DNA of 64,000 nucleotides, from assembly GCF_001677475.2 (NCBI RefSeq), contig NZ_CP015229.1. One strand, written 5' to 3'. Below the pieces are notes generated by a model. The model did no database searches and was not told the origin of the DNA. It saw nothing but the letters and a program-made list of their open reading frames with translations. Shown here one piece after another: positions 671-2,730 of this stretch (positions are counted from its first letter, which is position 1; every line of letters starts with the position of its first letter). The stretch comes from Escherichia coli. Its GTDB lineage: Bacteria > Pseudomonadota > Gammaproteobacteria > Enterobacterales > Enterobacteriaceae. Position numbers and translations under genes: made by a program.

Positions 671-2128
671 ATGACAATTTCAAATTCGAATTTATTGAAA
701 CCGTTTATTACTGGTACTGAGTTGCCACCTTTTAAAGAGGATGTTTTTTCTAAAACAGAAGAACAATTTAAAAAAAGCCCCCATGGCAAATTACTTTTCA
801 TTTCCGGAAATGAAAACTTAGTAAACATTTCAGCGGAAAAAATCGATGAAATAAAAAATAGCAAAGATTTCTTTTCAAACATTGTAAATATAATAATTTT
901 ACTCATTAAGCATCCTGATAAAATTCTGCCCATTCTTCATGGTTGTCCTGCAGAGTCCATCGAACTCATTAAGAATGCGAAACGAACGGGGCAATGGTCA
1001 TATGAGATGACTGATAAGAACGGGCAGAATATTGAAGTGTCCTATATTTTCACTGATACCATAGATGATAAATCTGATGGAAAATTATGCTTAAAAATCT
1101 ATAACTCTTGCAACCAAAATGATTCTAGTACACATGAATATAAAATAGATCATCAACAGTTGAAAAATCACATAAGGCAACTTGAGGAGTGGGCCCTTCT
1201 TGAAAAGTTTTATGATAACAACGCTTATTATTCTAAACGTACAAAACAATTAGAGAAGAAAATTGCCGATGCGGGGTTTATAACAGGGAAGGTTAATGCC
1301 GATAACTTTAATGTAAAAGAGTTTAAAGACGATATAGCCTCGATGCTTTGTGAACAGCCCCCCATGCGTACACACCAGATTTCTTCATCCGGATACTTAT
1401 CTGCCGATAAAGTGCCCGATCTCTATAAGACAAATTTGAAAGACGCGCAGAGAGATCTGAAAACAACACCGGTTGACATCGATGGTGTTAGTCTAAAATC
1501 AAAAACTCGGGAAAAAATTGCAAAAGAAATTGCGAAAAAAACTGAGGAAGAAAATGCGGAAAAAATTGCGAAACAAAATGCGAAGACCATTGAGGAGAAG
1601 AATAGTGAAAAAAACAAGAAAGAAACAAATCCTGAGGATAATTTTGTCTTAAAATTCTCACCGGAAGAAATCAATGAGATGCTCCTGGATTACAGCGATG
1701 AAGAACAAAAAAAATTAAGACCTTTTTTCACTAGTGATCACATGTATTGTTTGTTTGATGCTTTTAGTCAGGGGTTGCATAATGTTGCTCGTAATGGCAG
1801 TCCACGGTATGCAGGTTTACTACGTCAAATAGCATCCAAGTCTGCGATATTACAAGATTTTGATCAACAATTGTTCTGGCGCACGTTTTCAGGAGGAGTC
1901 TTCCATCGACGTATCTCTGTGAACAGCGAGCCAGAAAAGACAGATGTATGGCGATTCAGTACACAATTTGATTTTCCACATATAAATGACAACGGAGAGT
2001 TGTCCAGAACGGTACTCATGTTCGAGGGGGTTGCTGAAAGCAACTTTAAAGATATCGCCAATCATTCCAGCGAATGTTTTTCTTACAGTTGTTATGCCGC
2101 TCCGCTGGATGCGAATGCTAAAAAATAG
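671..2128 (+). CDS. Orphan 485-aa protein in an AT-rich insertion; putative papain-fold (OTU-like) cysteine peptidase effector/toxin with a Lys/Glu-rich repeat linker
   Basis: Uninterrupted 1458-nt ORF in AT-rich DNA (about one third G+C by eye), GGAG at 660-663 seven nt before the ATG, stop TAG at 2126-2128. No counterpart in the K-12-type gene order that I know. Cys box DHMYC(360)LFDAFSQGLH and H437-I-N439-D. No signal peptide or transmembrane segment evident. Confidence 0.8.
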   Translation: MTISNSNLLKPFITGTELPPFKEDVFSKTEEQFKKSPHGKLLFISGNENLVNISAEKIDEIKNSKDFFSNIVNIIILLIKHPDKILPILHGCPAESIELIKNAKRTGQWSYEMTDKNGQNIEVSYIFTDTIDDKSDGKLCLKIYNSCNQNDSSTHEYKIDHQQLKNHIRQLEEWALLEKFYDNNAYYSKRTKQLEKKIADAGFITGKVNADNFNVKEFKDDIASMLCEQPPMRTHQISSSGYLSADKVPDLYKTNLKDAQRDLKTTPVDIDGVSLKSKTREKIAKEIAKKTEEENAEKIAKQNAKTIEEKNSEKNKKETNPEDNFVLKFSPEEINEMLLDYSDEEQKKLRPFFTSDHMYCLFDAFSQGLHNVARNGSPRYAGLLRQIASKSAILQDFDQQLFWRTFSGGVFHRRISVNSEPEKTDVWRFSTQFDFPHINDNGELSRTVLMFEGVAESNFKDIANHSSECFSYSCYAAPLDANAKK

Positions 2129-2148
2129 TGACGCCGGAGCTTGAAGTT

Positions 2149-2730
2149 TCAGAGCGCCTTGCGTGACGCCTGCGCCATCATCCGCGGATAAAACTGCCAG
2201 AAGCGGGTTTCGAGGGCGGCATAATGTGCGTCTAAATCGTACCAGGAGTCACGCAGGGCATCCAGACGTGGGCGACGGCTTGCCATGCCGTTTAACACGT
2301 TCTGGATGAAATCCATATCGCGATAGCGCACCAGCCACTGCTCTGACCATAAGTAGTTGTTCAGATTGATAAAGCGTGGCGGTGAGTCCGGCAAAATCGT
2401 CATCACTTGCTCGCGGGCATAACAAACAAATTCCTGTAGTGGAAAGTCCGGCGACAGCTGCGACCAGTGGCGGGAAAGAAAGTGATCCCACATGACATCC
2501 AGGGTAATAGGCGCAACGCGGCGCGTTTCACTACGAAACCATTCCCGTGCTTCGCGGACTTCCGGCAGATTGTCGGTTAGTACATCAATGCGCCGATGCA
2601 TATGAATGCCAGCCACGACGTCGGGCGGAAAACTTTCTTCAGGATTTCCGCGTACGAAATCAGCCAGCAAATTGCCGGAAAGCGAGCTTTCCGCCAGGTG
2701 AGCTAGATGCAGGTGAGCTAAAAAATTCAT
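2149..2730 (-). CDS. acpH: Acyl carrier protein phosphodiesterase AcpH (YajB)
   Basis: ORF 2149..2787 trimmed to the internal start [16 protein letters not shown]...; 193 aa, matching the known length. Confidence 0.9.

Follow-up and report, generated by a model that had tools for sequence, protein, structure and literature searches.

A single-gene insert replaces malZ as the convergent partner of acpH in Escherichia coli, at a junction that was already tight

Does a gene that settled beside acpH of Escherichia coli, its stop codon only 20 nt from that of acpH, bring a new transcriptional conflict to its neighbour, or does it occupy a place where convergent transcripts already overlapped? We addressed this question in a 64,000-nt stretch of E. 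coli DNA (the window), which starts in the malZ-acpH-queA-tgt-yajC-secD region. The features considered are, in window positions:

1 to 485, + strand: malZ (maltodextrin glucosidase), 3' end with the stop TAA at 483-485; from the RefSeq annotation of matching genomes
486 to 2154: insert-specific segment, 1,669 nt; from alignments with insert-free genomes and composition
519 to 564: strong imperfect hairpin, candidate malZ terminator or insulator; from folding
671 to 2128, + strand: orphan ORF of 485 aa (Z0502 of O157:H7 EDL933); ORF call
1503 to 1598, + strand: 12-nt (4-aa, xIAK/xxEE-like) tandem repeat within the orphan ORF; repeat search
2120 to 2125, - strand: U6 on the acpH strand, A6 in the terminal Lys-Lys codons of the orphan ORF; from sequence
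2128 to 2167: imperfect hairpin of 14 pairs with four interruptions; from folding
2129 to 2148: spacer between both stops, exactly 20 nt; from sequence
2149 to 2730, - strand: acpH (ACP phosphodiesterase), 193 aa; profile matches and RefSeq annotation

The orphan ORF ends with TAG at 2126-2128 and acpH, starting with the ATG at 2728-2730, ends with a TGA that reads TCA at 2149-2151 on the + strand, so that the 20-nt spacing reported in the earlier note is confirmed by direct reading of the coordinates. The product of acpH matched Pfam ACP_PD (1.7e-59) and the NCBIfam equivalog NF007466 (7e-130), and the malZ part of the window showed 96-98% tblastn identity to E. coli malZ. The same 20-nt gap is found in the RefSeq annotation of five further insert-bearing E. 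coli genomes (six of six including the window), and over the 111 nt around the junction these six genomes differ at three sites only. One of them, C/T at position 2140, is the sole variable site within the spacer and the hairpin at 2128-2167, with T in the alleles of EDL933, PS1Phumofeces1 and 3CM. In a closely related annotated genome, 50 kb hold six convergent pairs, which are separated by 20, 37, 51, 53, 127 and 176 nt. Thus 20 nt is the short end of an ordinary range and the junction is an ordinary one. Adjacent, on opposite strands, tail to tail and 20 nt apart, the orphan gene and acpH have the geometry of an excludon.

Where the foreign segment begins and ends was determined by alignment with the insert-free genomes C600 and SSGNw1. 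Homology is lost directly after the malZ stop (485) and regained at 2155, and the segment 486-2154 stands where insert-free genomes have the 10 nt CGTT-TTA-TAA, that is the 4-nt spacer, the acpH stop and the codon for acpH Leu193. The last Leu codon and the stop of acpH are supplied by the right end of the insert, so the gene ends with CTC-TGA in insert-bearing and with TTA-TAA in insert-free genomes, and the AcpH C-terminus (...ASRKAL) is identical with and without the insert. This right end, TGAAGTTTCAGAG (2142-2154), shares 8 of 13 positions with the insert-free junction TAACGTTTTATAA and rebuilds the Leu-stop end of acpH using other codons. The insert has 34-37% GC, with values of about 0.29-0.42 along the stretch compared with ~0.52 in the flanks, and the region is the lowest-GC kilobase of the entire window. 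By megablast the insert is present in 1,126-1,127 of 5,426 complete E. coli genomes (21%) and the flanks in 5,424 of them; wherever it occurs in these genomes it is single-copy and chromosomal. It holds one ORF only. A low-GC, lineage-restricted insert bears out the earlier suggestion that the orphan ORF is an acquired gene. The marks of a classical genomic island were not found: there is no integrase or mobility gene, no tRNA and no clear flanking direct repeats, the insert ends carry no tRNA or RNA family, and Rfam returned nothing at the junction. The repeats that flank the insert are weak and imperfect. A possible target-site duplication (479-488 and 2137-2147) matches at only about 7 of 10 positions, with a gap, and the 8-mer GTGACGCC, present at 2128-2135 and 2163-2170, has its copies 35 nt apart; we consider both unconvincing. 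A derived form of the locus was seen in E. coli O55:H7 USDA5905 (L107, 1094-2834), where a deletion has joined malZ, shortened at its C-terminus, to the final 336 nt of the orphan gene; malZ and the orphan remnant both carry a pseudogene annotation, and acpH still lies 20 nt away.

The orphan ORF is preceded by GGAG 7 nt before its ATG, and its reading frame is intact in all 16 aligned alleles. Searches of the protein against Pfam, NCBIfam, PADLOC, PHROGs and PDB sequences gave nothing above threshold, and among 1.84 billion representative proteins there was one full-length 50% cluster together with fragments of the same protein. All named homologues belong to E. coli, Shigella or Escherichia sp., and a peptide-pattern scan of one genome per species detected no relatives in other species. 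Residues 102-158 could be aligned with metagenomic PKD repeats (31% over 58 aa), a similarity too weak for a PKD domain to be named, and AlphaFold2 on 16 alleles gave a mean pLDDT of 40.6. Allele lengths range from 461 to 493 aa and mostly differ by multiples of 4 aa, because the number of 12-nt repeats varies, which makes the tract a coding VNTR. For the orphan gene, dN/dS spans 0.24-1.75 and its median is near 0.8. Its dS (671-2125) is 0.02-0.04, and that of adjacent acpH (2152-2730) is 0.04-0.17 across the same genome pairs, the orphan value being 3-5 times lower in most of them. These values suggest that the gene is under weak constraint and that its alleles have a more recent common ancestry than the flanks, a pattern that would fit acquisition followed by spread through recombination. 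The allele of strain 3CM is a mosaic with a far more divergent central part. The exact orphan protein is deposited in GenBank for E. coli (ANO87618.1) and is found together with the exact QueA (ANO87620.1) in one E. coli GenBank genome; the exact AcpH sequence occurs widely within E. coli.

What did acpH face before the insert arrived? In insert-free E. coli (C600, SSGNw1) the stops of malZ and acpH are 4 nt apart. To look beyond the species, the locus was taken from one genome per species by a degenerate acpH pattern, and malZ, acpH and the orphan gene were placed in these representative loci by tblastn. All four divergent Escherichia genomes recovered (L024, L050, L074 and L085), with MalZ proteins of 90-93% identity, have TAA, 4 nt and TTA at the junction. 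Since these four genomes share it, the 4-nt tail-to-tail junction is ancestral for the genus, and the insert is, as judged from these comparisons, a later arrival within E. coli. In other Enterobacteriaceae (loci L010-L105) malZ and acpH lie anywhere between about 34 nt and more than 5 kb apart, and thus the spot is variable in general and a recurrent site of gene gain. In E. coli MG1655, malZ-acpH is one of 165 convergent excludons, defined there by transcript overlap in at least 50% of 58 RNA-seq samples, and the mean intergenic distance of E. coli excludons is 95 nt (PMC12288877). The claim that acquisition created the convergent squeeze is therefore not sustained, as the insert-free stops are already 4 nt apart and the pair is a catalogued excludon. 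The insert swapped the convergent partner of acpH, the orphan gene for malZ, and widened the gap from 4 to 20 nt, five times the ancestral distance. Tight packing at acpH is ordinary and older than the insert; convergent read-through is plausible, ancestral here and already catalogued for malZ-acpH.

It had also been argued that 20 nt leave no room for a terminator hairpin. This argument is unsound, because hairpins can use the ends of coding sequences: the structure at 2128-2167 folds over both stop codons and the last five acpH codons, and on the acpH strand it is followed by UAUUUUUU (2127-2120), with U6 two nt after the hairpin, which gives it the outline of an intrinsic terminator. The structure itself is weak. 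On the - strand it has -13.9 kcal/mol with a z of -1.07, and 34 of 200 shuffles were as good; on the + strand it has -15.4 kcal/mol with a z of -0.02, no better than shuffles, and is followed by GCCUGCGCCAUCAUCC, which holds no U-tract, so that the element does not qualify as a bidirectional terminator. With T at 2140 the - strand has an A/C mismatch and no longer forms the hairpin; the EDL933-type allele adopts a different fold of -8.6 kcal/mol. The hairpin is hence not conserved, three of the six alleles losing it. Ranked by unconstrained upstream MFE only, the T6 site at the junction is 14th of 71 T6 runs in the window. A consensus terminator scan gave nothing at the junction and nothing on the + strand over 382-3100; it pointed to three weak - strand sites inside the ORF (2073-2055, 2004-1988 and 1484-1467). 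The junction has no robust intrinsic terminator on either strand. Since neither strand is robustly terminated, some overlap of the orphan and acpH transcripts is likely, as in K-12. Termination of acpH in the allele of the window could be more efficient than assumed, its site being in the top fifth of T6 runs. As to the claim that orphan transcripts run antisense into acpH, the + strand lacks a terminator-like site and such read-through can therefore occur; this part stands, whereas the notion of a conflict made by the acquisition does not.

At the other end of the insert, 34 nt past the malZ stop, we found a more stable structure (519-564), with AAUUUGUUAAAUAUUUGU next to it on the + strand. 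It has -26.9 kcal/mol with a z of -2.25 on the + strand and is more stable on the - strand, with -36.3 kcal/mol and a z of -4.8. Other alleles have T instead of C at 556, which replaces an A/C mismatch by an A-U pair and strengthens the hairpin. The element is single-copy in E. coli genomes. If it stops malZ transcripts, the insert would shield acpH from malZ and not expose it.

To judge how strongly each partner may press on acpH, we used per-gene RPKM values from strand-specific RNA-seq of EDL933 in eleven conditions (PMC4048457 Table S4), where Z0501 is malZ, Z0502 the orphan gene, annotated as hypothetical, and Z0503 acpH. The values for Z0502, malZ and acpH, in this order, were 8, 46 and 13 in LB, 3, 17 and 5 in LB pH 9, 1, 7 and 1 in LB pH 4, 8, 70 and 11 in LB at 15 C, 5, 25 and 9 in LB with nitrite, 0, 0 and 3 in LB with antibiotics, 1, 8 and 5 on solid LB, 2, 11 and 11 in minimal medium, 4, 6 and 10 in spinach juice, 2, 10 and 7 on radish sprouts and 1, 1 and 4 in faeces (PMC4048457). 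The ranges over the eleven conditions are thus 0-8, 0-70 and 1-13 RPKM (PMC4048457). Z0502 is weakly transcribed throughout: it stays below malZ in nine conditions and ties with it in the other two (LB with antibiotics, faeces), and acpH exceeds it in ten and matches it in LB pH 4. Both Z0502 and acpH are low and show no obvious opposition, as far as per-gene values reflect it. The antisense pressure of Z0502 on acpH is probably below that of malZ in insert-free strains, and any effect of the orphan gene on acpH is probably a small one that does not surpass what malZ exerts in the ancestral arrangement. No strong sigma-70 match was found upstream of the orphan ORF, and both the orphan gene and acpH are absent from the supplements of the EDL933 TSS paper. 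Strong induction of the orphan gene could occur elsewhere, for instance in the host or on relief of H-NS silencing.

Several readings of these data were weighed. That the acquisition of the orphan gene made a new convergent-transcription conflict, one that measurably lowers or modulates acpH, would agree with the 20-nt gap, with a + strand free of terminator-like sites over 2129-3100, and with a good Shine-Dalgarno sequence and a frame kept intact in all alleles, from which the gene is probably expressed at some time. We nevertheless regard it as unlikely, given that in insert-free strains malZ already lies opposite acpH at a distance of 4 nt, in a documented excludon, that the orphan mRNA stays at 0-8 RPKM and never exceeds acpH in the eleven EDL933 conditions, and that a strong sigma-70 match upstream of the ORF is absent. 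It is rather unlikely, too, that the hairpin at 2128-2167 with its U6 is an intrinsic terminator supplied by the insert, such that acpH reads little into the orphan gene: 14 pairs, -13.9 kcal/mol and UUUUUU two nt later on the - strand, at a site that ranks 14th of the 71 T6 runs and beside canonical-looking terminator sites, have to be set against a z of -1.07 that is no better than shuffles, four interruptions of the stem, a site missed by the consensus scan and the loss of the hairpin in the three of six alleles with T at 2140, which argues against selection.

Possible, though doubtful, is that the insert acts mainly as an insulator, in which the hairpin at 519-564 ends malZ transcripts and spares acpH the maltose-dependent antisense transcription of K-12-type strains. 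In favour of such a role, a strong hairpin with a U-rich + strand tail lies 34 nt past the malZ stop, all alleles retain it, the change at 556 strengthens it, and insert-free strains lack such space or hairpin (L003 folds). Against it, the tail AAUUUGUU makes a poor U-tract, a malZ terminator would not be expected to fold more stably on the - strand, as this hairpin does, and the Z0502 RNA could be malZ read-through. We hold it to be very doubtful that the insert rewired a conserved excludon as a whole, replacing the maltose-inducible malZ by a quiet orphan partner, with hairpins that stop malZ and, in some alleles, acpH. If this were true, acpH would be coupled to maltodextrin metabolism in insert-free strains, the acpH of insert-bearing strains would be uncoupled or coupled to the inducer of the orphan gene, and about a fifth of E. 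coli would carry one side of a natural presence/absence polymorphism in antisense regulation.

The reading that we prefer, with a probability of about 0.7 as a whole, is that the insert edge lies beside acpH at a site of ancestral overlap, most likely with a small effect on acpH; it starts from the observed coordinates, the insert boundaries and the ancestral 4-nt gap. The 20-nt gap would be the right-hand edge of an old single-gene insert, left when a low-GC orphan gene, confined to E. coli and Shigella, landed in the malZ-acpH tail-to-tail junction. In the ancestral Escherichia state the stops are 4 nt apart and the transcripts already overlap. We infer that acpH transcripts now reach into the 3' end of the orphan gene by some tens of nt or more, and that in the allele of the window the weak hairpin and U6 may partly stop them. 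Orphan transcripts, which meet no U-tract past the hairpin, would continue antisense into acpH until Rho or chance ends them. Given weak orphan transcription and a strong hairpin past malZ, acpH is most likely affected only slightly on balance. The insert would, if anything, relieve ancestral malZ-acpH interference, with no new conflict arising.

Bidirectional intrinsic terminators between convergent genes consist of a hairpin flanked by an A-tract and a U-tract. The structure at the orphan-acpH junction resembles them in being centred between convergent stops, with an A-tract that is a U-tract on the opposite strand; unlike them, it has a tract on one side only and a stem that is imperfect, no better than shuffles and polymorphic. 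AT-rich, strain-specific single-gene islets are known from the E. coli core genome, for example among the O-islands of O157:H7. Like them, the insert is low in GC, is present or absent at one fixed position of the chromosome, encodes a hypothetical protein and is little expressed in the laboratory. In contrast to them it has no integrase, tRNA or clear flanking repeats, and acpH, the core gene beside it, owes its last codon and its stop to the right end of the insert. The closest counterpart is the malZ-acpH excludon of MG1655 itself (PMC12288877, ExcludonFinder), with the same acpH, the tail-to-tail arrangement, a very short gap and no stand-alone terminator; here the partner is the orphan gene, the gap is 20 instead of 4 nt, and the overlap is a predicted one.

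Presence and absence of elements was also seen nearby. An ERIC-type repeat lies between acpH and queA (2734-2858, core 2772-2816), in which both classical ERIC primer sites are matched with 2 mismatches each and which gave a sub-threshold Rfam V_AS5 match. The acpH-queA spacer is 92, 218 or 295 nt by strain, and thus the ERIC-type element is also present or absent. Over 2149-8000 the best RefSeq complete E. coli genomes are at most 98.1% identical to the window. Between yajO and pgpA, which in the window are separated by only 82 nt (15047-15128), ETEC1738 has a 1.57-kb pentapeptide-repeat gene (L106, 32198-33769).

E. coli has many tight convergent pairs whose 3' ends overlap, and acpH-malZ was already one of them. 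The view of the locus is thereby corrected: the insert did not create a conflict, it displaced malZ by 1.67 kb, and the neighbour that acpH now faces is an orphan gene of weak expression. With this alternative partner present in 21% of complete E. coli genomes, the locus may serve as a natural test of whether the partners in an excludon matter.
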